The notes under the pieces were generated by a model. The model saw only the letters and a list, made by a program, of their open reading frames with translations. It ran no database searches and was not told the DNA's origin. A stretch of 64,000 nt of DNA, from NCBI RefSeq assembly GCF_036365525.1, contig NW_027140807.1, forward strand, positions 186,001 through 250,000, in the 5' to 3' direction. The translations under genes and the position numbers were made by a program. Positions 20,564-62,211 of the stretch are shown here, piece by piece. Each line of letters begins with the position of its first letter. The stretch's first letter is position 1. Source of the stretch: Heterodontus francisci. Its lineage: Eukaryota.

Positions 20564-22195
20564 TATTAGAATTAGAATTAGAACATTACAGCGCAGTACA
20601 GGCCCTTCGGCCCTCGATGTTGCACCGACCTGTGAAACCATCTGACCTACACTATTCCATTTTCATCCATATGTCTATCCAATGACCACTTAAATGCCCT
20701 TAAAGTTGGCGAGTCTACCACTGCTGCAGGCAGGACGTTCCACGCCCCTACTACTCTCTGAGTAAAGAAACTACCTCTGACATCTGTCCTATATCTATCA
20801 CCCCTCAACTTAAAGCTATGTCCCCTCGTGTTTGCCATCACCATCCGAGGAAAAAGACTCTCACTATCCACCCTATCCAACCCTCTGATTATCTTATATG
20901 TCTCTATTAAGTCACCTCTCCTCCTCCTTCTCTCCAACGAAAACAACCTCAAGTCACTCAACATTTCCTCGTAAGACCTTCCCTCCAGACCAGGCAACAT
21001 CCTAGTAAATCTCCTCTGCACCCTTTCCATAGCTTCCACATCCTTCCTATAATGCGGTGACCAGAACTGCACGCAATACTCCAGGTGCAGTCTCACCAGA
21101 GTTTTGTACAGCTGCAGCATGACCTCGTGGCTCCGAAACTCGATCCCCCTACTAATAAAAGCTAACACACCATATGCCTTCTTAACAGCCCTATTAACCT
21201 GGGTAACAACCTTCAGGGATTTATGCACCTGGACACCAAGATCTCTCTGTTCATCTACACTACCAAGAATCTTCCCATTAGCCCAGTACTCTGCATTCCT
21301 GTTACTCCTTCCAAAGTGAATCACCTCGCACTTTTCCGCATTAAACTCCATTTGCCATCTCTCAGCCCAGCTCTGCAGCCTATCTATGTCCCGCTGTACC
21401 CTACAACATCCTTCGGCACTATCCACAACTCCACCGACCTTAGTGTCATCTGCAAATTTACTAACCCACCCTTCTACACCCAATCCAGGTCATTTATATA
21501 AATGACAAACAGCAGTGGCCCCAAAACAGATCCTTGCGGTACACCACTAGTAACTAAACTTCAGGATGAACATTTGCCATTAACCACCACCCTCTGTCTT
21601 CTTTCAGCTAGCCAATTTCTGATCCAAAGCTCGAAATCCCCTTCAACCCCATACTTCCGTATTTTCTGCAATAGCCTACCGTGGGGAACCTGATCAAACG
21701 CCTTACTGAAATCCATATAGACCACATCCACGGCTTTACCCTCATCCACTTGTTTGGTCACCTTCTCGAAAAACTCAATAAGGTTTGTGAGGCACGACCT
21801 ACCCGTCACAAAACCGTGCTGACTATCTCTAATGAACTTATTCTTTTCAAGATGATTATAAATCCTGTCTCTTATAACCTTTTCCAACATTTTACCCACA
21901 ACCGAAGTAAGGCTCACAGGTCTATAATTACCAGGGCTGTCTCTACTCCCCTTCTTGAACAAGGGGACAACATTTGCTATCCTCCAGTCTTCCAGCACTA
22001 TTCCTGTCGACAATGACGACATAAAGATCAAGCACAAAGTCTCTGCAATCTCCTCCCTAGCTTCCCAGAGAATCCTAGGATAAACCCCATCTGGCCCAGG
22101 GGATTTATCTATTTTCACACTTTCCAAAATTGATAACACCTCCTCCTTGTGAACCTCAATCCCATCTAGCCGAGTAGCCTGAATCTCAGTATTCT
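20564..22195 (-). mobile_element. 5'-truncated CR1 LINE (reverse transcriptase part, frameshifted)
   Basis: Motifs KSPGPDG, NYRPVSLTS, DFSKAFD and KFADDTK, split across ORFs 21561-22139 and 20647-21483. (TTCTAA)n 3' tail at about 20564-20585. Confidence 0.93.
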
Positions 22196-38810: not shown

Positions 38811-39294
38811 TAAGGTCAGTGTGGAGGTGTATTTGTGAGCAGTGACTGATGGGACAAAGCAGTTCAGAGTTATCCACTGTCTGGACAAAGAATCACACAC
38901 AGACTGACCTCAAACTCACGTAATTTTACCAAGGAGTCAAAGAGCAGGGCCTGATCCATAGTTTTATCCTCATGTACCTGGGTTTCACACTTGGACTGTA
39001 CATATTTTTTGGTATCCAACCTCCTTGGTTAAAACACACTGGGTGCACTGTGAACATTTCAGGTCTCCTCATACCTTGGTTAGACTTCATTTGGAGAACG
39101 GTGCACAGTTCTGGTCTCATTATACTTTGGTTGGACGAAGACTGGAGCACTGTGCACAGTTCTGACCACATTTAGATCACGGTATAGAACATAGAACATA
39201 GAACATAGAACATACAGCACAGAACAGGCCCTTCGGCCCACAATGTTGTGCCGATCCTTTGTCCTCTGTCAAGGACAATTTAATCTATACCCCA

Positions 39295-42189
39295 TCATTC
39301 TCCTTTATCCATATACCTATCCAAAAGCCTTTTGAAAGTCCCTAAAGTTTCTGACTCAACAACTTCCCCGGGCAAGGCATTCCATGCCTCGACCACTCTC
39401 TGGGTAAAGAACCTTCCCCTGACATCCCCCTTATATCTCCCACCCTTCACCTTAAATTTATGACCCCTTGTAACGCTTTGCTCCACCCGGGGAAAAAGTT
39501 TCTGACTGTCTACCCTATCTATTCCCCTGATCATCTTATAAACCTCTATCATGTCACCCCTCATCCTTCTCCTTTCTAATGAGAAGAGGCCTAGAATGTT
39601 CAGCCTTTCCTCGTAAGACTTATTCTCCATTCCAGGCAACATCCTGGTAAATCTCCTCTGCACCCTCTCCAAGGCTTCCACATCCTTCCTAAAATGAGGC
39701 GACCAGAACTGCACACAGTACTCCAAATGAGGCCTTACCAAGGTCCTGTACAGCTGCATCATCACCTCACGGCTCTTAAATTCAATCCCTCTGCTAATGA
39801 ACGCTAACACCCCATATGCCTTCTTCACAGCCCTATCCACTTGAGTTGCAACTTTCAACGATCTATGCACATAGACCCCAAGGTCTCTCTGCTCCTCCAC
39901 ATGCCCAAGAACCCTACCGTTAACCCAGTATTTTGCATTCATGTTTGTCCTTCCAAAATGGACGACCTCACACTTTTCAGGGTTAAACTCCATCTGCCAC
40001 TTTTCAGCCCAGCACTGCAACCTATCCAAGTCCCTTTGCAGACGACAATAGCCCTCCTCGGTATCCACAACTCCACCAACCTTTGTATCATCTGCAAATT
40101 TACTGACCCACCCTTCGACTTCCTCATCCAAGTCGTTAATAAAAATCACAAACAGGAGAGGACCCAGAACTGATCCCTGCGGCACGCCACTGGTAACTGG
40201 GCTCCAGGCTGAGTATTTACCATCTAAGACCACTCTCTGCCTTCTATCAGTTCGCCAATTCTTAATCCAACTGGCCACATTCCCCACTATCCCATGCCTC
40301 CTGACTTTCTCCATAAGTCTACCATGGGGGACCTTATCAAATGCCTTACTAAAATCCATGTACACCACATCCACTGGTTTACCCTCATCCACTTGCTTGG
40401 TCACCTGCTCAAAGAATTCAATCAGGCTTGTGAGGCAAGACCTACCCCTCACAAAACCGTGCTGACTGTCCCGAATCAAGCAGTGTCTTTCCAGATGCTC
40501 ATAAATCCTATCCCTCAGCACCTTTTCCATCAACTTGCCTACCACCGAAGTAAGACTAACTGGCCTGTAATTCCCAGGGTTGTTCCTATTCCCTTTCTTG
40601 AACAGGGGCACAACATTTGCCACCCTCCAATCACCTGGTACCACCCCCGTCAGCAGAGAAGATGAAAAGATCATTGCCAGCGGCTCTGCAATTTCATCCC
40701 TTGCTTCCCATAACATCCTTGGATATACCCCGTCAGGCCCGGGAGACTTGTCTATCTTCAAGTTATTCAAAAACCCCAACACATCTTCCCTCCTAACGAG
40801 CACTTCCTCGAGCTTACCAGTCTGTTTCACACCGTCCTCTTCAGTAATACACCCCTTCTCATTCGTAAATACCGAAGAGAAGTACTCATTCAAAACCTCA
40901 CTTATCTCTTCCGGCTCAACACACAGTCTCCCGCTATTGTCCTTGACCGGACCTATGGTCCCCCTAGTCATCCTCATATTTCTGACATACGCGTAAAAGG
41001 CCTTGGGGTTTTCTTTTATCCTACCCGCCAAGCATTTTTCATGCCCTCTCTTAGCTCTCCTAATCCCTTTCTTCAGATCCTTCCTGGCCATCTTGTATCC
41101 CTCCAGAGCTATGCCTGTGCCCTTTTTCCTCAACCTTATATACGCATCCTTCTTCTTCCTAACAAGACTCTCAACCTCTCTTGTCAACCACGGTTCCCTC
41201 ACATGACCATCCCTTCCCTGTCTGACAGGGACATGCTTATCAATGGCCCCTACTATCTGCTCCTTGAAAAAGTTCCACATTTCGACCGTGCCCTTCCCTG
41301 CCAGCATATGCTCCCAACTTATGCTCCTCAGTTCCTGCCTGACAGCATCATATCTACCCTTCCCCCAATTGTAAACCTTGCCCTGTTGCACATACCTATC
41401 CTTCTCCATTACCACAGTGAATGCTACAGAATTGTGATCACTATCTCCAAAGTGCTCGCCCACCAACAGCTCTATCACTTGCCCTGGTTCATTACCTAGT
41501 ACCAAATCCAATATTGCCTCCCCTCTGGTCGGGCAGTCTACATACTGAGTCAGAAAAGCTTCCTGGACATACTGCACAAACACTACCCCATCCAAACTAT
41601 TCGATCTAAAGAGTTGCCAATCAATATTTGGGAAGTTGAAATCCCCCATAATTACTACCCTGTGACTTCTGCTCCTTTCCAAAATCTGTTTCCCAATCTG
41701 CTCTTCCACCTCCCTGCTGCTATTGGGGGGCCTATAGAAAACTCCCATCAAGGTGACTGCTCCTTTCCTGTTCCTGACCTCAACCCACAGTGCCTCAGTC
41801 GGCAGATCCTCCTCGAAAATTCTTTCAGCAGTTGTTACACTATTTCTAACTAACAATGCCACCCCCCCACCTCTTTTACCACCATTCCTAATCTTATGAA
41901 AACATCTATAACCAGGTACCTCCAAAAACCATTCCTCCCCCTCACCTATCCACGTTTCAGTGATGGCCACAACATCGTAGTTCCAAGTGCCCATCCACGC
42001 CTTCAATTCACTCACCTTATTCCTGATGCTTCTTGCGTTGAAGTATACGCACTTTAACCCTTCTCCGTGCCCATCTGTCCTCTGTGACAGTGCTACCTTC
42101 CCCAATACCTCACTACACTCTTTGTCTTTCTGAGTGGACCCACTGGTCCCTGGATTACAAGTCCGGTTCCCATCCCCCTCCCAAACTAG
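39295..42189 (-). CDS. CR1 ORF2p: APE endonuclease plus reverse transcriptase
   Basis: YFNARS, ITETW, GDFN and SDH endonuclease motifs; GVPQGSVLGP and FADD RT motifs. The frame is open up to the end of ORF1 and has no AUG before the first endonuclease motif. Confidence 0.95.
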   Translation of the reverse strand, partial: LVWEGDGNRTCNPGTSGSTQKDKECSEVLGKVALSQRTDGHGEGLKCVYFNARSIRNKVSELKAWMGTWNYDVVAITETWIGEGEEWFLEVPGYRCFHKIRNGGKRGGGVALLVRNSVTTAERIFEEDLPTEALWVEVRNRKGAVTLMGVFYRPPNSSREVEEQIGKQILERSRSHRVVIMGDFNFPNIDWQLFRSNSLDGVVFVQYVQEAFLTQYVDCPTRGEAILDLVLGNEPGQVIELLVGEHFGDSDHNSVAFTVVMEKDRYVQQGKVYNWGKGRYDAVRQELRSISWEHMLAGKGTVEMWNFFKEQIVGAIDKHVPVRQGRDGHVREPWLTREVESLVRKKKDAYIRLRKKGTGIALEGYKMARKDLKKGIRRAKRGHEKCLAGRIKENPKAFYAYVRNMRMTRGTIGPVKDNSGRLCVEPEEISEVLNEYFSSVFTNEKGCITEEDGVKQTGKLEEVLVRREDVLGFLNNLKIDKSPGPDGVYPRMLWEARDEIAEPLAMIFSSSLLTGVVPGDWRVANVVPLFKKGNRNNPGNYRPVSLTSVVGKLMEKVLRDRIYEHLERHCLIRDSQHGFVRGRSCLTSLIEFFEQVTKQVDEGKPVDVVYMDFSKAFDKVPHGRLMEKVRRHGIVGNVASWIKNWRTDRRQRVVLDGKYSAWSPVTSGVPQGSVLGPLLFVIFINDLDEEVEGWVSKFADDTKVGGVVDTEEGYCRLQRDLDRLQCWAEKWQMEFNPEKCEVVHFGRTNMNAKYWVNGRVLGHVEEQRDLGVYVHRSLKVATQVDRAVKKAYGVLAFISRGIEFKSREVMMQLYRTLVRPHLEYCVQFWSPHFRKDVEALERVQRRFTRMLPGMENKSYEERLNILGLFSLERRRMRGDMIEVYKMIRGIDRVDSQKLFPRVEQSVTRGHKFKVKGGRYKGDVRGRFFTQRVVEAWNALPGEVVESETLGTFKRLLDRYMDKGE

Positions 42190-43106
42190 TTTAAACCCTC
42201 CCGAACAGTACTAGCAAACCTCCCTCCCAGGATATTGGTGCCCCTCTGGTTCAGATGCAGCCCGTCCTGTTTGAACAGGTCCCATCTTCCCCAGAATGCA
42301 GTCCAATTATCCAAGAACTGGAAGCCCTCCCTTCTACACCATTCCTGCAGCCACGTGTTCAGCTGTGCTCTCTCCCTATTCCTAGCCTCACTATCACGTG
42401 GCGCCGGCAACAAACCAGAGATAACAACTCTGTCCGTCCGAGCTTTCAGCTTCCAGCCTAACTCCCTAAACTCACTTCTAACATCTGTGCCACCCTTCCT
42501 TCCTACGTCGTTGGTGCCAATGTGCACCACGACCTCTGGCTGCTCCCCCTCCCCTTTAAGGATCCTGAAGACGCGATCACAAACATCACGGACCCTGGCA
42601 CCAGGGAGGCAACAAACCATCCGTGCGTCTCGCCTGCGCCCACAGAACCGCCTGTCCGTACTCCTCACCATCGAGTCCCCGATGACTAGTGCTCTCCCAT
42701 TCTCCCTCCTTCCCTTCTGAGCCACAGTGCAGGACCCCGTGCCAGAGGCCCGGTCACTGCAGCCTGCCCCCGATAGGCCGTCCCCCCCAACAGTATCTAA
42801 AACTGTATACTTGTTGTTGAGGGGAACGACCACAGGAGATCCCTGCACTGACCTCTTCCCACCTCTAACTGTTACCCAGCTGCCTTTGATTTGTGGAGTA
42901 ACGACCTCCGTGTAGCTTCTATCTATCAACCCCTCAGCTTCCCGAATGATCCTCAGTTCATCCAGCTCCAGCTCCAATTCCCTAACACGGTCTGATAGGA
43001 GCTGGAGACGGATGCACTTCCAGCAGGTGAAGTCGGCAGGGCCACCGGAGGTTTCCCTCACCTCGAACATTCTGCAGGAGGAGCAATACACTACACTGGC
43101 TGCCAT
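42186..43106 (-). CDS. CR1 ORF1p: zinc finger/coiled coil plus SGNH (GDSL-type) esterase domain, 306 aa
   Basis: CxxC...CxxC N-terminus and a leucine-rich helix, then LVIGDSMVR, CLPGA, VHIGTND and DGLHL esterase blocks. Confidence 0.92.
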   Translation of the reverse strand: MAASVVYCSSCRMFEVRETSGGPADFTCWKCIRLQLLSDRVRELELELDELRIIREAEGLIDRSYTEVVTPQIKGSWVTVRGGKRSVQGSPVVVPLNNKYTVLDTVGGDGLSGAGCSDRASGTGSCTVAQKGRRENGRALVIGDSMVRSTDRRFCGRRRDARMVCCLPGARVRDVCDRVFRILKGEGEQPEVVVHIGTNDVGRKGGTDVRSEFRELGWKLKARTDRVVISGLLPAPRDSEARNRERAQLNTWLQEWCRREGFQFLDNWTAFWGRWDLFKQDGLHLNQRGTNILGGRFASTVREGLN

Positions 43107-44194
43107 TTCTTTTATTCAATTACCCCTTAGTTAAGTACAAATATAGATATTAACAAAAACAGTAAATAGCTTACCTGCTCAGTCCTTTTTGGTTAGAGGA
43201 GGAGGGTAAAAAGGGTCTTATTATTAGGTTAGAGGAGGAGGATGGGTGGGAGACACTACATGTGTAGTGGCTCGAGTTTACTCAGCTCCGCACCTTTAAG
43301 GAAAATACCTACCCAGGAATCCTCGCTGCCGACCAGCTTCCGGTTCCTCCGGCGCCAAAAGAAACTCAAAGACAAGGAAAACAGTAAGTAAAACAGTAAG
43401 TACTTACTTTTAAAACACAGCTCCTGATGCCTTCACTCACCCACCGAAGAGTCGCTACCTTCTCCTGCTGCTCCGCCGGGAAATTATACATAACAGTAAG
43501 GATCGAACAGGCTGGGGTCCTTCTCCAGAAATGAGGGGTGCCCAGATAAGAAGTCTTTAATATTATTCATAGGTTTGATAGGATAGATGTAGAGAAGATA
43601 TTTTCACTTGAGGCCCAAGACCAGAATTATAAGCTATAAAATAGTCACGAAAAATCCAAATTCAGGACAAACCTCATTTCCCAGAGATTGGTGAGAATGG
43701 GGAACTAACCACAATAGGCAGTGGTAGAGGCAAATTGTATTCAGTGGGAAACCAGTAGACATACGAGGCAGAAAGGATTGACAGGAGATGCTGAGAGGTT
43801 GAGATAAAGAGGGATGAAAGGATGTACCTGTGGAACATCAACACCTGTATAGATCCGTTCACCTGATGCTGTGTTCTATATTGTCTGCAATTCTATATAG
43901 TCAACATCAGTATCTGAAAGAGGGGAGAAAGTTGGAAAGCCGATCTGGAACTTCCCAAGGAGTTCTACAGCCAATGAAGTGCTTCTGTTGAATTACAGGC
44001 ATGTTGGTCTTTATTGCAAGGGGGATGGGAGAACAAGAATAAGGAAGTCGTGTTACACTTGTATTGGGTCTTGGTGAGAACACACCTGGAATACAGTGTG
44101 CACATATTTGGACAGGGCTCCGAATGATCGGGCTGCACATGTCAATGACACTGAACTGCAGTTCCAGAAAGCGATTAACAGGCGTCTAACATTG

Positions 44195-44360: not shown

Positions 44361-44980
44361 ATGTCTGTGTCTCAGCTCTGGGTTGTGTTGTTGGTGTTAA
44401 GGGGTAAGGAGGTGTCTGAACTGTGAGGTTACAATGATGTACATGTGTCTCTGATTCTCAGTCTCTGTCTGTCTTTGTCTCTCTCCTTCTCCCTCTATAT
44501 TTCTTTCTCTGTCTCTCATTATCTCTCGCTCTCTGCCTCTCTGCCTCTAACTGGTCTCCACCGCTCTCTCTCTATCTCTGTCTGCCTGCCCACTTCTACC
44601 ACTTCTTGTTGATAACAATATAGATATTGTCCCTGGGTTAATCTCTTTCTTTCTCTCTCTCTCTCTCTCTCTGTTTTACAGATGTGAGGGCTGTGTTGAT
44701 CCAACAGACTCCCTCTTCCATATCCCATTCCCCAGGCTCTCCAGTCAGGATCCAATGGACTTACACTGAAGCAACAGCTGGCTCCTATTTCTACTGGTAC
44801 CGATGGCGTCCGGACCGTGAGCCCCAGAACCTTTCCTATTCCTACGGTGCTGGAACGGTCAGTCCCTCTGGTGAGGTGGACGGTTTCACCGCCAGGAGAC
44901 CCGACAACACCCATTTTTACCTGGAGTCCTCCAGCCTGTGGATGAATCAATCAGCCATGTATTACTGTGCCTGGAGACAG
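44361..44980 (+). pseudogene. TRBV: Isolated inverted TCR V segment of a third family (leader 44361-44403, V exon 44682-44980): open frame but first Cys changed to Trp
   Basis: Leader MSVSQLWVVLLVLR|GTAAGG and acceptor TTTTACAG. V reads VLIQQTPSSISHSPGSPVRIQW...FYWYRW...MYYCAWRQ. Confidence 0.87.
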
Positions 44981-45019
44981 CACAGTGACTCAGAAAGGCG
45001 CTGGAGTTCAGCAAAAACT
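44981..45019 (+). promoter_or_regulatory. 23-RSS of the inverted V
   Basis: CACAGTG, 23-bp spacer, GCAAAAACT. Confidence 0.92.
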
Positions 45020-51325: not shown

Positions 51326-52965
51326 GAATCACAGAATAATACTGTGCAGAAGAGGCCCTTCGGCCCATCGAGTCTGCACCGATGCATTAAAGACACCTGA
51401 CCTGTCTACCTAATCCCATTTACCAGCAATTGGCCCATAGCCTTGAATGTTATGACGTGCCAAGTGCTCATCCAGGTACTTTTTAAAGGATGTGAGACAA
51501 CCTGCCTCTACCACCCTCCCAGGCAGGGCATTCCAGACTGTTGCCACCCTCTGGGTAAAAAAGCTCTTCCTCAAATCCCCCTTAAACCTCCCGCCCCTCA
51601 CCTGAAACTTGTGACCCCCTCGGAACTGACCCTTCAACTAAGGGGAACAGCTGTTCCCTATCCACCCTGTCCATACTCCTCATAATCTTGTACACCTCGA
51701 TAAGGTCACCCCTCAGTCTTCTCTGCTCCAGTGAAAACAACCCAAGCCTATCCAACCTCTCTTCATAGCTTAAATATTCCATCACAGGCACCATCCTGGT
51801 GAATTGCCTCTGCACCCCCTCCAGTGCAATCACATCCTTCCTATAATGTGGTGACCAGAATTGCACACAGTACTCCAGCTGTGGCCTTACCAAAGTTCTA
51901 TCCAACTCCAACATGACCTCCCTGCTTTTGTAATCTATGCCTCGATTGATAAAGGCAAGTGTCCCATATGCCTTTTTCACCACCCTATTAACCTGCCCTT
52001 CTGCCTTCAGAGATCTATGGACAAACACGCCAAGGTCCCTTTGTTCCTCGGAACTTCCCAGTGTCAGGCCATTCATTGAATACTTCCATGTCACATTACT
52101 CCTTCCAAAGTGTATCACCTCACACTTTTCAGGGTTAAATTCCATCTGCCACTTTTCTGCCCATTTGACCATCCCATCTATATCTTCCTGTAACCCAAGA
52201 CACTCCACCTCACTGTTAATCACTCGGCCAATCTTTGTGTCATCCCCGAACTTACTGATCCTACCCCCCACATAGTCATCTATGTCGTTTATATAAATGA
52301 CAATCAATCGGGGACCCAGCACAGATCGCTGTGGTACGCCACCGGACACTGGCTTCCAGTCACTAAAACAGCCGTCTGACATCACTCTCTGTCTCCTACA
52401 GCTAAGCCAATTTTGAATCCACCTTATCAAGTTACCCTGTATCCCATGTGCATTTGCTTTCTTGATAAGTCTCCCATGTGGGACCTTGTCAAAGGCTTTG
52501 CTGAAATCCATGTAAAATACATCAACTGCACTACCCTCATCTACACACCTGGTCACATGCTCAAAAATTCAATCAAATTTGTTCGGCATGACCTCCCTCT
52601 GACAAAGCCATGCTGAATATTCCTAATCACATTTTGCCTCTCCAAGTGGAGATAGATTCTCTCCTTCAGAATTCTCTCCAATCGTTTCCCTACCACTAAC
52701 GTGAGACCCACTGGTCTGTAGTTCCCTGGCTTATCTCTACAACCTTTCTTAAATAGTGGGACCACATTAGCTGTTCTCCAGTCCTCTGGCACCTCCCCCT
52801 TGGCCAGAGAGGAATTAAAAATTTGGGTCAGAGCCCCTGCAATCTCCATCCTCGCCTCCCACAGCATCCTGGGAGACAAATGGTCCAGCCCTGGAGATTT
52901 GTCCACTTTTAAGCTGCCAAAACCTCCAATACCTTCTCACTCCCGATGACAATTTGCTCAAAAAC
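51326..52965 (-). mobile_element. 5'-truncated, frameshifted CR1 LINE
   Basis: ORF pieces 52553-52906, 51582-52556 and 51410-51637 carry CR1 RT motifs. Confidence 0.92.
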
Positions 52966-55965: not shown

Positions 55966-57436
55966 CAATGCTTTCAGCCATTTCTTGGTTAATTTTAAAC
56001 CTTTAATGCTTTCCCTGCAGTTTGAAAATATCAAACACTGATCCAACACTCCCCCCTAAAACCTTCACACTAAACTTCTTTAAACTTTTCACAAGCCTTT
56101 ATAAAGCTTCACGTTCAACTCTTGTAATTATTGGCCCTCAGGAGCAGTTGACACTCAATGAATTAATTTTGAAAGTGGTCCTCAGTGTTGCAATGCAGGC
56201 ACTGTGTGCACAGCAAGATCCCACAGGCAGCAATATGATAACATGCAGATAATCTGTTTTTAGTGATGTAAGTTTAGAGATCCCAGAAAGAGGAACATTC
56301 CTGCAGTTTGAAAATCTCAAACACCCCTCTCCCTGTCTTTCTCCTGCTCTCTGTGTGCCTGTCTCTCTCTCTCTCAATCTGTGTGTCTCTCTCTCTGTGC
56401 CTGTCTCTCTCCCTCTCTCTAAATCAGAGTCACTCTCTCTCTCTCTCTGCCTGTCTGTCTCTCTCTCTTCTCAGAATCTGTCTCTCCCTCCCTCTTTCTA
56501 CCCATCTCTCCCTCCCTCTTTCTGCCTGTCTCTCCCTCGCTCTCTGTCTCTCTGAAGACCAATATCACGTATGTTTCGCCAATTACTCTCTTACTAAGTG
56601 CTGCCGCCTTCAAAGATCACTGCTCGTGAACCTCCAGCTCCCTCTGTACCTGCACACTCTTGAGAAATATGTCATAGTATCATCAAACAAAGTCAACATG
56701 GTTTCACGAAAGGGAAATCTCCTTTTAATCTTCTCTGCTCTAAGGAGAACAAGCCCAGCTTCTCCAGTCTATCAGTGTAACTGTAATAATCTCATCCAGG
56801 AACCGTTCCAGTAAATCTCTTCTACACATTCACCAAAGCCTCCATGTCCTTCCAAAAGTGTGATCCCAGAATTGGACACAATACTCCAACTGGAGACAAA
56901 CTATTATTTTATAAAGGTTTAACATCACTTCCTGACTTTTGCACTCTCGATCTCTGTTTATAAAGCTCAGGATCCCATCTGCTTTATTAACCCATCAGCG
57001 AAGAGAGAAATTCTCTCCATTGACCGGTTCCATTAGACATGAATCCTTGAGTCATTCCAAGGCTGGCGGGAGGGTTTAGGGGAGACCAGAGAGAACCCTG
57101 ACCTGGTCAGTTTTTATCAAACAGGAAACCATCAGTACATTGGCACCAATGTGGTGGAAGGAAGCTTCCTATCGTGATAACATTCCCAGCTGCGGATCAG
57201 TGGATACAGGGGTCAAATCCATCTCCACACCATCCCAGTGACTGTACACTGGAGATCTGCCTGTCAATTCTGTGTAACATCTAGAGAGCTATTCAGCTGT
57301 GTGATCCATCCCACCTTTCTCTCACTACCTGTCCACCTCGCCCTCTGCCTCTCCCCCTCACTCGCTGTGTCTCTCCCTCTTTCAACACCACTTTCTCTCC
57401 CTCTCTCTCTCCCTCTCTCTATCTCTCTCTCTTTGC

Positions 57437-58180
57437 AGTGTCCCACTAGTCACAGCCTGCCAACCTGAAAATGACCCATTTATTCCTACTCTCTGTTTCC
57501 TGTCCATTAACCAGTTCTCAATCCATGCCAGTATCTTCCCCCCAATCCCATGTGCTCTCATTTTGTTTACTAACCTCTTGTGTGGGATCTTATCAAAAGC
57601 TTTCTGAAAATCTAAATCTATCACATCCACCGGTTCCCCCTTATCTATTCCGCTAGTTACGTCCTCAAAAAAACTCCAACAGGTTTGTTAAAGATGATTT
57701 CCCTTTCATAAATCCATGTTTACTCTGACCAATCCTACCATTATTTTCGAAGTGTCTGCTTATCACATCCTTTATTATAGATTTGAGAATTTTCCCTCTG
57801 ACTGATGTTAGACTAACAGGTCCGTAGTTCCCCATTTTCTCTCTCCCTCCTTTTGTAAATAGTGAGGTTACAATTGCTACCTTCCAATCTGCAGGAACCA
57901 TTCCAGAGTCTATTGAATTTTGAAAGATGACCACCAATACATCAACTATCTCTACAGCCACCTCTTTCAACACTCTGGGATGTAGATCATCAGGTCCAGG
58001 GGATTTATTTACTTTCAGACCCATTCATTTGTCTCGTACTTTTTTTACTAATATTTATATTTTGCAGTTCATCATTTACACTAGTTCCCTGATTCTCCAT
58101 TATTTCTGGGAGGTTTTCAGTATGTTCCTCTGTGTAGACAGACACAAAGTATTTGTTTAGTTTCTCTACCATTGTCCTAG
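57437..58180 (-). mobile_element. Internal CR1 LINE fragment
   Basis: KSPGPDDLHPRVLKE, NYGPVSLTS and DFQKAFD in ORFs 57665-58024 and 57382-57630. Confidence 0.88.
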
Positions 58181-60551: not shown

Positions 60552-62211
60552 GTCTGTCTTTACGTCAGTTCTTGCAGATATATGGAGATATTGGAGAGCT
60601 TGGGTTGTTCTCCACTGGTCCTTCCTATCTACTCTATCTGGGCCCATCATCATTTTACACACCTCCATTAAATCTCTCCTCAGCCTCCTCTGTTCCAAAG
60701 AAAACAATTCCAGCCTGTCCAATCTTTCCTCCTGGTTAAAATTCTCCATTCCTGACAACATCCTCTGTAAATCTCCTCTGTACCCTCTCTAGTGTGATCA
60801 CATCCTTCCTGTAATGTGGTGACTAGAACTGTACACAGTACTCTAGCTGTGGTCTAACTAGTGTTTTATACAGTTCCAGCATAACCTCCCTGCTCTTATA
60901 TTCTATACATCGGCCAATAAAGGAAATTACAATCGAAAATCCTGTGAGAAAAATAATCCCTATTGTTAATTAAAAAAACAGCTAACAATTGTTACAGTGC
61001 AACACAAGTATGATTTATTAAACTTTAACACAACAGAGTTTGTTACTCGGTCGTGTAAAGTGCATTGCACTATTACTGACCTTTATTCCAGTCCCTCAAT
61101 CCCACTTCATCTCGGGGAGATTGTTATAAGATTCACCCCATCATTTCAAACATAAATATTACCCACATCAAACCAGAGCAATTAGAAATTGTACACAGCT
61201 GCTGATAGCTAGTAACAAGACCGAAGGGAATGTTCAGTCTTCCATCTGTAACCCAGACAAATATATGTCTTCATTTATATTGATATCTGTCTGTCTGTCT
61301 GAATGGAATCAGATGGAGGCCAGGCGTCTCCCATAACAACATTGTTTGACCATTTCACTTTTTCTGACAGACTGAAAGTTTTCATCTATCTTGTCTCTAT
61401 TTTCCTGCAGTGATGTCCTGGGACTGAGCTGATTGACCTCCAACAACCACAACCATCTTCCTTTGTGCTCGGTTTGATTCCAACCAGCAGATTCCCACTG
61501 ACTTCAGTTTTACTCGGGCTCTTCGATGCCACACTCGGTCAAACGCTGCCTTGATGTTAAGGTCAGTCTCTCTTCCCAGTAGCAGACAGGAGTGAATTGT
61601 TCCCTTTGACCCGTTGTGTACTGAACATGCTCTGCTTCTTCACAGCCTGATACAGGACTGTACACGGCCGATTAATGTAGCCCATCAAACACTCCGAGAG
61701 CAGGTTCAGCACAGCTTAGGAAGAGAGTACAGTTCCTTCAACATTCTCTCTCTGTCTTCCTCTCTCTGTCTCTCCCTCCTGCTATCTCTGACACTAGGAG
61801 AGAGACAGAGGGAGAGAGGGTTAGATATGCAGACAGAGAGAGAGGGCTGTAGAGAGGGACAAGGTTGGAGAGAGAGAGATTGTTGGGGTGGATTGAAAGG
61901 GAGAATGTAAGATATATGAATTTGATGGAATCCTTCACTCCTGTGTACACAAACAGATAAAGATAGGTGTGTAGAGTGAAATATTGGTGGAGAGGGAGAA
62001 ATGTGGATGAAGTTGGGGCCCAAGCGACCCATTCTGATGATCCAGAAGGAAAGCACTCCATTGTAAACATCCAGCAAGCTATTCCACTGTGGGAGCCATC
62101 ACACATTCATGATATTGTTGTGGAAATCTTGAAATCTATGTCCCTGGTTATTGACCCCTCTGCTAAGGGAAATGGGTCCTTCCTATCCACTCTCTCTAAG
62201 CCCATCAGAGT

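Follow-up and report, generated by a model that had tools for sequence, protein, structure and literature searches.

Known routes to the ORF2 protein of LINEs are reinitiation (L1, SART1) and 2A peptides, and a review of the field (PMC3894237) regards the translation of LINE ORF2 as an open question. For TRE5-A and TRE3-A, non-LTR retrotransposons of Dictyostelium, a review (PMC5911963) states that the APE-RT ORF2 requires a -1 frameshift. Among slippery heptamers, U_UUA_AAC is one of the most shift-prone (PMC5009743).

CR1 elements are among the major LINEs of vertebrates. They account for 11.8% of the annotated chicken chromosomes (PMC11835228). Subgroup 7 of the vertebrate CR1, with an ORF1 of type IVB (zf/lz and esterase), resembles the element analyzed here in the Cys motif and esterase of ORF1, the APE and RT of ORF2, and a microsatellite tail (PMC4120745). 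Frameshifting is mentioned neither in that study (no matches to 'frameshift') nor in PMC3905857. Our literature search, the reach of which did not extend to the older CR1 papers, identified no paper on frameshifting in CR1. Chicken and turtle CR1 sequence papers from the 1990s could contain an earlier mention of the overlap or of a frameshift. Here we analyze a CR1-type LINE in a 64,000-nucleotide stretch of the Heterodontus francisci genome (hereafter, the window), in which an earlier note proposed a -1 frameshift between ORF1 and ORF2.

Architecture of the CR1-type element

The element (Table 1) is abundant in the H. francisci genome, and no relatives were detected in the viral_contigs or genome_contigs collections. 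Inspection by eye revealed no clear target-site duplication around its ends. Members of the CR1 clade carry a short-repeat 3' tail in place of poly(A), and the (GTTCTAT)4 tail fits this pattern. The assignment to CR1 rests on architecture and homologues.

ORF1 starts with the ATG at 43106 and ends with the codons GAG GGT TTA AAC TAG. It combines conserved Cys residues (8, 28 and 31) with an SGNH esterase domain (Pfam PF13472, E 6e-14), that is, the Cys/zinc-finger motif and esterase of type IVB, and in a profile search it matches PDB 4c1b, 'ORF1-encoded protein' (E 2e-44). Alignment A1 shows no variation at Leu305 and Asn306, and a Leu-Asn C-terminus is present in 77 of the 85 homologues with the DxLH motif among the 120 listed (175 were found). 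Named sources of the ORF1 homologues include sharks, rays, coelacanth, a teleost, frogs, turtles and squamates.

In a Pfam search, ORF2 contains only PF03372, PF14529 and PF00078, with no RNase H; this combination of APE and RT without RNase H is that of CR1 clade ORF2. The APE region matches ExoIII and L1 EN, and the endonuclease Asn, codon 53 within the YFNARS motif that starts at codon 51 (42045), aligns to ExoIII residue 7. The annotated starts of ORF2 homologues are scattered, some of them beyond the catalytic Asn. A search for ORF1-ORF2 fusions among longer proteins yielded three matches, one of which, the gene model P0121 of 594 aa, has an esterase domain joined to an APE domain and is uninformative.

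Table 1. Features of the CR1-type element and its ORF1-ORF2 junction (window coordinates)
Feature	Position	Strand	Remarks
Full-length young LINE, CR1-type; ORF1 and ORF2 both intact	39184..43484	(-)	blastn against sister copies: 3' end at 39184, 5' end up to 43484
5' UTR	43107..43484	(-)	differs among copies; unit of ~200 bp, repeated in some copies
Pyrimidine-rich 5' UTR motif	43227..43260	(-)	near-invariant in families F1, F3, F4, F5
ORF1, 306 aa	42186..43106	(-)	N-terminal Cys motif and SGNH/GDSL esterase; C-terminus ...EGLN*
-1 frame stop (TAG)	42211..42213	(-)	five codons upstream of TTT; limits ORF2 entry
Overlapping canonical heptamer G_GGU_UUA	42192..42198	(-)	families F1, F3, F5 only
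Slippery heptamer U_UUA_AAC	42189..42195	(-)	predicted -1 shift site
ORF1 stop TAG	42186..42188	(-)	adjoins heptamer
Conserved G-run	42174..42178	(-)	+11 to +15 after heptamer; candidate 3' stimulator
Hairpin GGACC-AGTG-GGTCC	42136..42149	(-)	rejected as stimulator
Linker, slip site to endonuclease	42046..42189	(-)	-1 frame without stops and without AUG
ORF2, -1 frame	39295..42195	(-)	966 codons from TTT; APE endonuclease and RT
3' tail, four GTTCTAT repeats	39184..39211	(-)	without poly(A)

The predicted slip site and its conservation

Re-reading of the minus strand confirms the description of the junction in the earlier note: T_TTA_AAC lies in exact X_XXY_YYZ register of the ORF1 frame before the stop, a TAG closes the -1 frame five codons ahead of TTT, the first in-frame AUG of ORF2 (codon 68, at 41994) lies beyond YFNARS and the endonuclease Asn, and the predicted fusion comprises 1270 aa (306+964). 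ORF2 is indeed open in the -1 frame from the heptamer, being stop-free as far as 39298, but the count of 936 codons given previously has to be corrected to 966 from TTT. Also overlooked was the second heptamer, G_GGU_UUA; the two are the only canonical heptamers in register in the whole of ORF1. Given the base composition of the element, the chance of TTTAAAC at a given site is 4e-5, and that of any canonical heptamer is 1.7e-3.

The heptamer is conserved as nucleotides, at synonymous positions, across deep lineages. In a codon control that covered 20 of the 25 representative loci, some of them only 34% identical in APE, the final Leu codon of ORF1 is TTA in 20/20 and the final Asn codon AAC in 19/19, compared with TTA in 2/64 at other conserved Leu columns and AAT 11 / AAC 8 (AAC 8/19) at another Asn column. 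The base preceding TTA is T in 19 of 20 representatives, spanning seven different amino acids, and the sole exception yields G_UUA_AAC; GUU is tolerated as XXX in equine arteritis virus (PMC3542737). After the heptamer, T follows at +1 and A at +2, each in 19/20.

Among own-genome copies, 118 of 124 in five families carry the heptamer (F1 30/30, F2 25/30, F3 31/32, F4 20/20, F5 12/12), the F1 copies having been chosen by similarity to the junction itself and those of the other families being top-scoring matches. It is also present in 14 of the 18 foreign loci that hold the junction. The carriers belong to several deep APE clades whose identity to the window is 34-68%; these lineages share ancestry, so that the conservation counts are not independent.

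The -1 phase was found in 101 of 114 scorable own copies and persists despite changes in linker length: all linker-length classes with at least three copies are in phase, and the out-of-phase classes hold 1-2 copies each. Ten of 12 scorable foreign loci are likewise in the -1 phase and open, with linkers of 38-90 codons. The copies that are out of phase (13/114 own, 2/12 foreign) are read as decayed. The earlier note had asked whether TTTAAAC-stop and the -1 phase are conserved among CR1 elements, and the comparison, performed on natural copies instead of Repbase/Dfam consensus sequences, strongly bears this out.

In 16 of 24 junction-holding representatives, a stop closes the -1 frame 1-2 codons ahead of TTT, and ORF2 therefore cannot start upstream. 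Downstream, no Met precedes the APE Asn in F1 (30/30), F5 (8/8) and 8 of 10 intact F2 copies, and comparison of the linkers revealed no shared near-cognate start codon ahead of this residue. The linker does hold an in-frame Met in F3 (27/27 intact copies) and F4 (14/14). The F3 junction forms a SART1-like UAAUG stop-start overlap that is confined to this family; that of the window is TAG TTT. What the sequence establishes at the junction is thus a heptamer in register, the -1 phase with an open linker, no usable AUG, and conservation of the nucleotides themselves across deep lineages.

Candidate downstream stimulators

The usual distance between a slippery heptamer and its stimulator is 5-9 nt. 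No conserved local fold that would represent a stem-loop or pseudoknot at this distance was found in the representatives. Folding was performed with ViennaRNA, which does not model pseudoknots, and the region is C-poor; under these conditions, the region in the window is no more stable than its shuffled versions (z +0.76 over 60 nt, +1.43 over 100 nt), z <= -2 was reached in 2/17 (60 nt) and 1/16 (100 nt) representatives, and local MFE structure was rejected as the stimulator because the 17 representatives have no common fold. The classical second element of -1 signals is thus missing.

Both G-runs and a hairpin had been put forward as stimulators. The hairpin exists but begins 40 nt past the heptamer and is not conserved, with the contigs of other families losing similarity at 42165, short of it. 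The G-run withstood the comparison, being conserved at a fixed spacing: G is present at +11, +12 and +14 in 20/20 representatives, at +13 in 19/20 and at +15 in 17/20. In 14 of 17 representatives, the G4Hunter-type score reaches at least the element's 95th percentile, but L033-L035 and L057 lack four tracts. In G-quadruplex-stimulated frameshifting, as described in PMC3919603, four G-tracts are located just downstream.

Both in the window copy and in L210, the best partner of the junction G-tract is the pyrimidine-rich 5' UTR motif, which is complementary to it (-29.3 kcal/mol). Long-range pairing was rejected as the stimulator because the F3 and F4 letters are non-compensating and there is no covariation; furthermore, the motif was not found in F2, and the foreign loci have no common partner of the G-tract. 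We regard this pairing as a weak lead.

Translation of ORF2

These observations suggest that the endonuclease-RT of this CR1-type LINE is produced by -1 programmed ribosomal frameshifting as a 1270-aa ORF1-ORF2 fusion, a reading of the sequence to which we assign a probability of roughly 0.8. Most ribosomes would halt at UAG, releasing the 306-aa ORF1p, and a minority would slip back one base via tandem tRNA slippage and continue through the linker, APE and RT, so that the slippage rate would set a gag/gag-pol-like ratio. Less firmly, ribosomes might be made to pause by the 0-frame stop codon ahead of them in combination with the G-run 10 nt downstream (a protein-bound or G-quadruplex-like block), rather than by a local stem-loop or pseudoknot. 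Counted against frameshifting are the lack of a conserved downstream structure, the linker Met in F3 and F4, and UAAUG in F3. Moreover, mammalian L1 ORF2 can reportedly arise without its AUG (PMC1965478), and a missing AUG alone therefore does not demand a frameshift.

Termination-reinitiation is the strongest of the alternatives, though unlikely. Translation would terminate at the ORF1 stop and resume in the -1 frame, with an AUG (UAAUG in F3) or any codon as the start, yielding a separate ORF2p, and the conserved letters would be a restart signal. This mechanism is known for SART1 and proposed for L1 (PMC5972666; PMC3894237), and UAAUG in the ORF2 frame of F3, the early Met in F4 and several foreign loci, and the conserved stop directly after the motif all speak for it. 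However, reinitiation leaves unexplained why TTA and AAC, with a T ahead of them, should be fixed in precisely the register needed for slippage, and F1, F5, L033 and L042 have neither an AUG nor a shared near-cognate codon. A TURBS-like restart signal was rejected, given that the calicivirus-like UGGGA occurs at -90 to -20 in only 7/20 representatives and at scattered positions.

It is very unlikely that the motif reflects mere protein conservation (the Leu-Asn C-terminus of ORF1, or F-K-L and Gly in the ORF2 frame), with ORF2 translated by unrelated internal initiation. The invariance of Leu305 and Asn306 agrees with such conservation, but the synonymous positions are fixed as well; GGG is used for the Gly of the ORF2 frame in 19/20, compared with 72/256 Gly codons across the APE region, and the codon before it always ends in G, over seven amino acids. 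Nor can upstream translation reach F-K, that frame being closed.

Least probable of all is an RNA-level fix, whereby splicing, editing or polymerase slippage would frame ORF2 in a minority of transcripts: the site does contain T and A runs, and two genomic copies, both on one contig, carry an extra base there, but repaired RNAs would be expected to be copied back in cis, and the unshifted junction has 2,393 exact copies in the genome, which argues against such repair, as does the lack of an indel or joint across the stop among the listed matches from four runs (the run contigs drop rare variants, 14 matches with indels lie outside those listed, and the RNA status of three runs is presumed), including a run X1 contig that covers 41300-42555 with four substitutions and no gap.

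If frameshifting is correct, CR1 ORF2 would be mis-annotated wherever a Met start was chosen, the active CR1 enzyme would carry a lipid-binding esterase, retrotransposition assays of CR1 would have to keep the junction in its native form, and host factors that counter frameshifting would be candidates for LINE restriction. Deeply conserved -1 sites are rare in vertebrates, and this one, with its unusual stimulator, would join them; the fusion would be made retrovirus-style, unlike the restart mechanism described for human LINE-1. More speculatively, and with considerable doubt, the CR1 RT could be a gag-pol-like fusion made by structure-free -1 frameshifting that is switched on in trans, the G-run at its fixed 10-nt spacer either folding into a G-quadruplex or being bound by a protein, which could be ORF1p itself or a G-run binder of the host. 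The mechanism would then be a cellular equivalent of nsp1beta/PCBP-driven frameshifting in PRRSV, maintained in deeply separated lineages, with a sister esterase-LINE lineage reaching the same fusion by UGA-C readthrough.

The frameshift interpretation of the earlier note is thus supported, as far as sequence allows, and a LINE that frameshifts has a precedent in TRE5-A and TRE3-A, as stated in PMC5911963. As described there, these elements differ from CR1 in having another ORF1 (no esterase is described), an ORF2 zinc finger, a poly(A) tail and tRNA-gene targeting. SART1 and mammalian L1 (UAAUG coupling and termination-reinitiation, respectively) are, like CR1, bicistronic APE-type LINEs that need low ORF2 output; they yield a separate ORF2p, whereas CR1 has a conserved slip site and no conserved AUG. 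PRRSV nsp2 -1/-2 frameshifting, in which nsp1beta and PCBP act on a C-rich motif, resembles CR1, according to PMC4937337, in the lack of obvious RNA structure and in a short motif at a fixed spacer of ~10 nt; the CR1 motif is G-rich, the heptamer is different and there is no known trans-factor, which makes this an analogy only. With canonical viral and retroviral -1 frameshifting at U_UUA_AAC (IBV, SARS-type), CR1 shares the X_XXY_YYZ register, the short overlap, and the order of a structural ORF followed by a polymerase ORF in the -1 frame, and its one exceptional locus shares the G_UUA_AAC-type deviation of equine arteritis virus. In contrast to these systems, CR1 is a cellular non-LTR retrotransposon in which the stop adjoins the heptamer and a G-run at +11 stands in place of a conserved stem-loop or pseudoknot at 5-9 nt.

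The element and the junction of its reading frames

The CR1-type LINE lies among antigen-receptor-like V segments in a genome of 6.0 Gb. Its ORF1 encodes 306 aa with an SGNH/GDSL esterase domain (profile match to PDB 4c1b, E 2e-44), and ORF2 encodes APE and RT domains; among the matches listed, the closest named animal homologues of ORF1 come from sharks and rays. ORF1 contains two in-register canonical heptamers, G_GGU_UUA and U_UUA_AAC, which overlap at its very end, the second directly preceding the stop codon, as the earlier note had read it. The -1 frame is closed just upstream, likewise as described, and then open through ORF2, which from the TTT of the heptamer comprises 966 codons, not the 936 claimed; the proposed fusion length of about 1270 aa holds (306+964 = 1270 aa). 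The YFNARS motif starts at ORF2 codon 51, and its Asn (codon 53), aligned with ExoIII residue 7 and presumably catalytic, precedes the first AUG (codon 68), again in agreement with that note.

Coordinates of the LINE, its junction and neighboring features in the window
Feature	Position	Strand	Remarks
LINE element	39184-43484	minus	3' end (GTTCTAT)4
Pyrimidine-rich 5' UTR motif	43227-43260	minus	34 nt
ORF1 start	43106	minus	ATG
-1-frame stop	42213-42211	minus	TAG
-1 open frame	42210-39295	minus	
End of ORF1	42200-42186	minus	...GAG GGT TTA AAC TAG
Hairpin GGACC-AGTG-GGTCC	42136-42149		proposed earlier
V-segment matches	35-26333	minus	
V-segment match	44687-45019	plus	orientation opposite to others
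ORF2 fragments of related families	20662-22181, 51455-52930, 56714-58018, 60627-60930	minus	and others

The V cluster is an antigen-receptor (TCR-like) one, comprising at least 12 immunoglobulin-superfamily matches and 11 RSS-like signals whose spacers are 23 nt long. The ORF2 fragments are 5'-truncated or decayed, and none extends to ORF1. The 5' UTR motif hardly varies between families with ORF1s only ~40-60% alike and probably serves as a promoter or RNA element.

Conservation of the heptamer and of the -1 phase

The junction is a real, strongly conserved recoding signal; its conservation, which the earlier note had proposed as a test, is evident at several levels. Five own-genome families, represented by their top-scoring loci, were compared: F1 was gathered by DNA similarity to the junction and is circular for this purpose, and F2-F5 were gathered by ORF1 protein searches, which take no account of codon choice or ORF2 phase. 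Of the 124 copies, 118 carry TTTAAAC. Among 80 metagenome relatives kept of at least 139, at least 18 have a junction of this type, 14 of these 18 with TTTAAAC and the others with GTTAAAC, TTTAAAT, TTTCAAC and TTTACGA. Carriers span several deep APE clades (in a tree with long branches and unsure deep order), with identity to the window as low as 34%; because they share ancestry, these counts indicate long-term constraint, not independent origins.

Among the 120 listed of 175 ORF1 homologues found, a DxLH-type motif occurs in 85; in this group, 77 have Leu-Asn as their last two residues, with the Asp exactly 26 residues away in 74, two end in IN or VN, and six end otherwise. Named sources include sharks, rays, Latimeria, Paramormyrops, Xenopus, Hyla, turtles, lizards and a snake. 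Two homologues (P0037, P0084) continue beyond the site as FKL, which is how the heptamer reads in the -1 frame. P0001 (labelled Pseudomonas aeruginosa, 89% to ORF1), P0126 (labelled Carnobacterium maltaromaticum, nearly identical to F3 APE) and P0070 (labelled flatworm) look like vertebrate LINE contamination of public records.

Codon choice was assessed in 20 of 25 representative loci (L037, L041, L050 and L053 were left out for ORF1 frame breaks, L032 for truncation). The final Leu is TTA in 20/20 and Asn is AAC in 19/19, compared with TTA in 2/64 at four other conserved Leu columns and AAT 11, AAC 8 at another Asn column; TTA is preceded by T in 19/20, though the codon to which this base belongs specifies seven different residues.

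Measured from the heptamer to the APE Asn, the spacing fits the -1 phase for 101 of the 114 own copies that could be scored (another 10 lack a recognisable motif); every linker-length class with at least three copies is in phase, and those out of phase comprise one or two copies each. Of 12 scorable foreign loci, 10 are in the -1 phase with an open linker of 38-90 codons. The -1 frame is closed 1 or 2 codons upstream of TTT in 16/24 representatives.

Termination-reinitiation at the ORF1 stop draws its main support from a Met before the APE Asn in F3 (27/27) and F4 (14/14), and from the F3 junction (e.g. L141-L160, L181-L192), where, besides the heptamer, stop and start overlap in a SART1-like TAATG whose AUG is in frame with ORF2, so that two routes to ORF2 may coexist there. 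No such Met occurs in F1 (30/30), F5 (8/8 intact) or F2 (8/10 intact), and no near-cognate start common to the families was found. Against a correction at the RNA level (splicing, editing or polymerase slippage) stand 2,393 exact genomic copies of the 36-nt junction in its unshifted form, as opposed to 2 that carry an additional base, and a gap-free X1 contig across the junction, although rare variants are concealed in contigs and it is a guess that the sequencing-run contig sets X1, X5 and X6 derive from RNA. In a different family, an X6 contig has 513 nt in place of 525 nt, with phase kept. Loci L211 and L212 (G000:C1323) carry one additional T at the slip site, by which ORF1 and ORF2 come to share a frame; they probably represent a single duplicated locus that failed to amplify.

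The downstream G-run and the proposed frameshift

In an ungapped alignment of 20 representatives anchored at the heptamer, +1 is T and +2 is A, in 19/20 each, +4 to +10 are variable, and G occupies +11, +12 and +14 in 20/20, +13 in 19/20 and +15 in 17/20. The ORF2-frame Gly here is GGG in 19/20, compared with 72/256 in the APE region, implying constraint on the RNA. Summed depth of the sequencing-run contigs is highest in the junction bin, and contigs of related families stop matching at 42165, directly past the G-tract (22 in X1, 35 in X5); the conserved block thus ends there. Of the stimulators suggested in the earlier note, the G-run, fixed in position, stands as a candidate, and the hairpin, outside this block, is excluded as part of it. 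No shared RNA fold was found downstream of the heptamer; in the window itself, shuffled sequences fold better than this region. Of 17 representatives, 14 have a high G4-type score, four G-tracts not being present in all.

We infer, with a probability of about four in five, that a ribosome at U_UUA_AAC, facing UAG as its next in-frame codon and the G-tract just past the mRNA entry channel, would mostly terminate to yield ORF1p, and that a minority would slip by -1 to produce an esterase-linker-APE-RT fusion. The least secure part of this mechanism is what acts as the stimulator.

Other LINE lineages and known recoding systems

A separate clade of esterase-ORF1 LINEs lacks the heptamer (32 hand-picked loci: L056, L060-L063, L065-L069, L072-L074, L077-L079, L083, L087, L088, L090, L091, L093, L094, L099, L102-L107, L109, L110). 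Its ORF1 stop is TGA in 31/32, within TGA-CTA or TGA-CCA in 27/32, and of the 27 loci that could be scored, 21 have ORF2 in the frame of ORF1, making stop-codon readthrough a candidate route to the same kind of fusion; with a linker Met in 18/21, reinitiation may be the route instead. In two further lineages, ORF2-like frames likewise continue in frame past a single stop, in L052 (near 2735, TGA-CTA) and L064 (near 4547, TAG-G).

Our literature search, which extended neither to papers under subscription nor to Repbase notes or the first descriptions of CR1, found no report of frameshifting in CR1; an earlier mention in print is quite possible. A full-text search of the Atkins 2016 review gave no mention of CR1, and the whole text of a review on non-LTR protein biogenesis mentions neither frameshifting nor readthrough. 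Passages of other papers were also drawn on (PMC4120745, PMC3905857, PMC4255032, PMC11835228, PMC5972666, PMC1965478, PMC3542737, PMC5006619). In passages of the Atkins review, HeT-A is the listed frameshifting non-LTR case and L1 is said to use unusual initiation; according to a figure legend, TRE5-A and TRE3-A depend on a -1 frameshift (PMC5911963). The CR1 signal, from one of the major LINE clades of vertebrates, combines a canonical heptamer with a candidate stimulator that is non-canonical. As analogies, G-quadruplexes, according to part of one paper, can stimulate -1 shifts (PMC3919603), and the 10-nt spacer of the G-run equals that of the C-rich, protein-bound stimulator of PRRSV, as described in part of another (PMC4937337).
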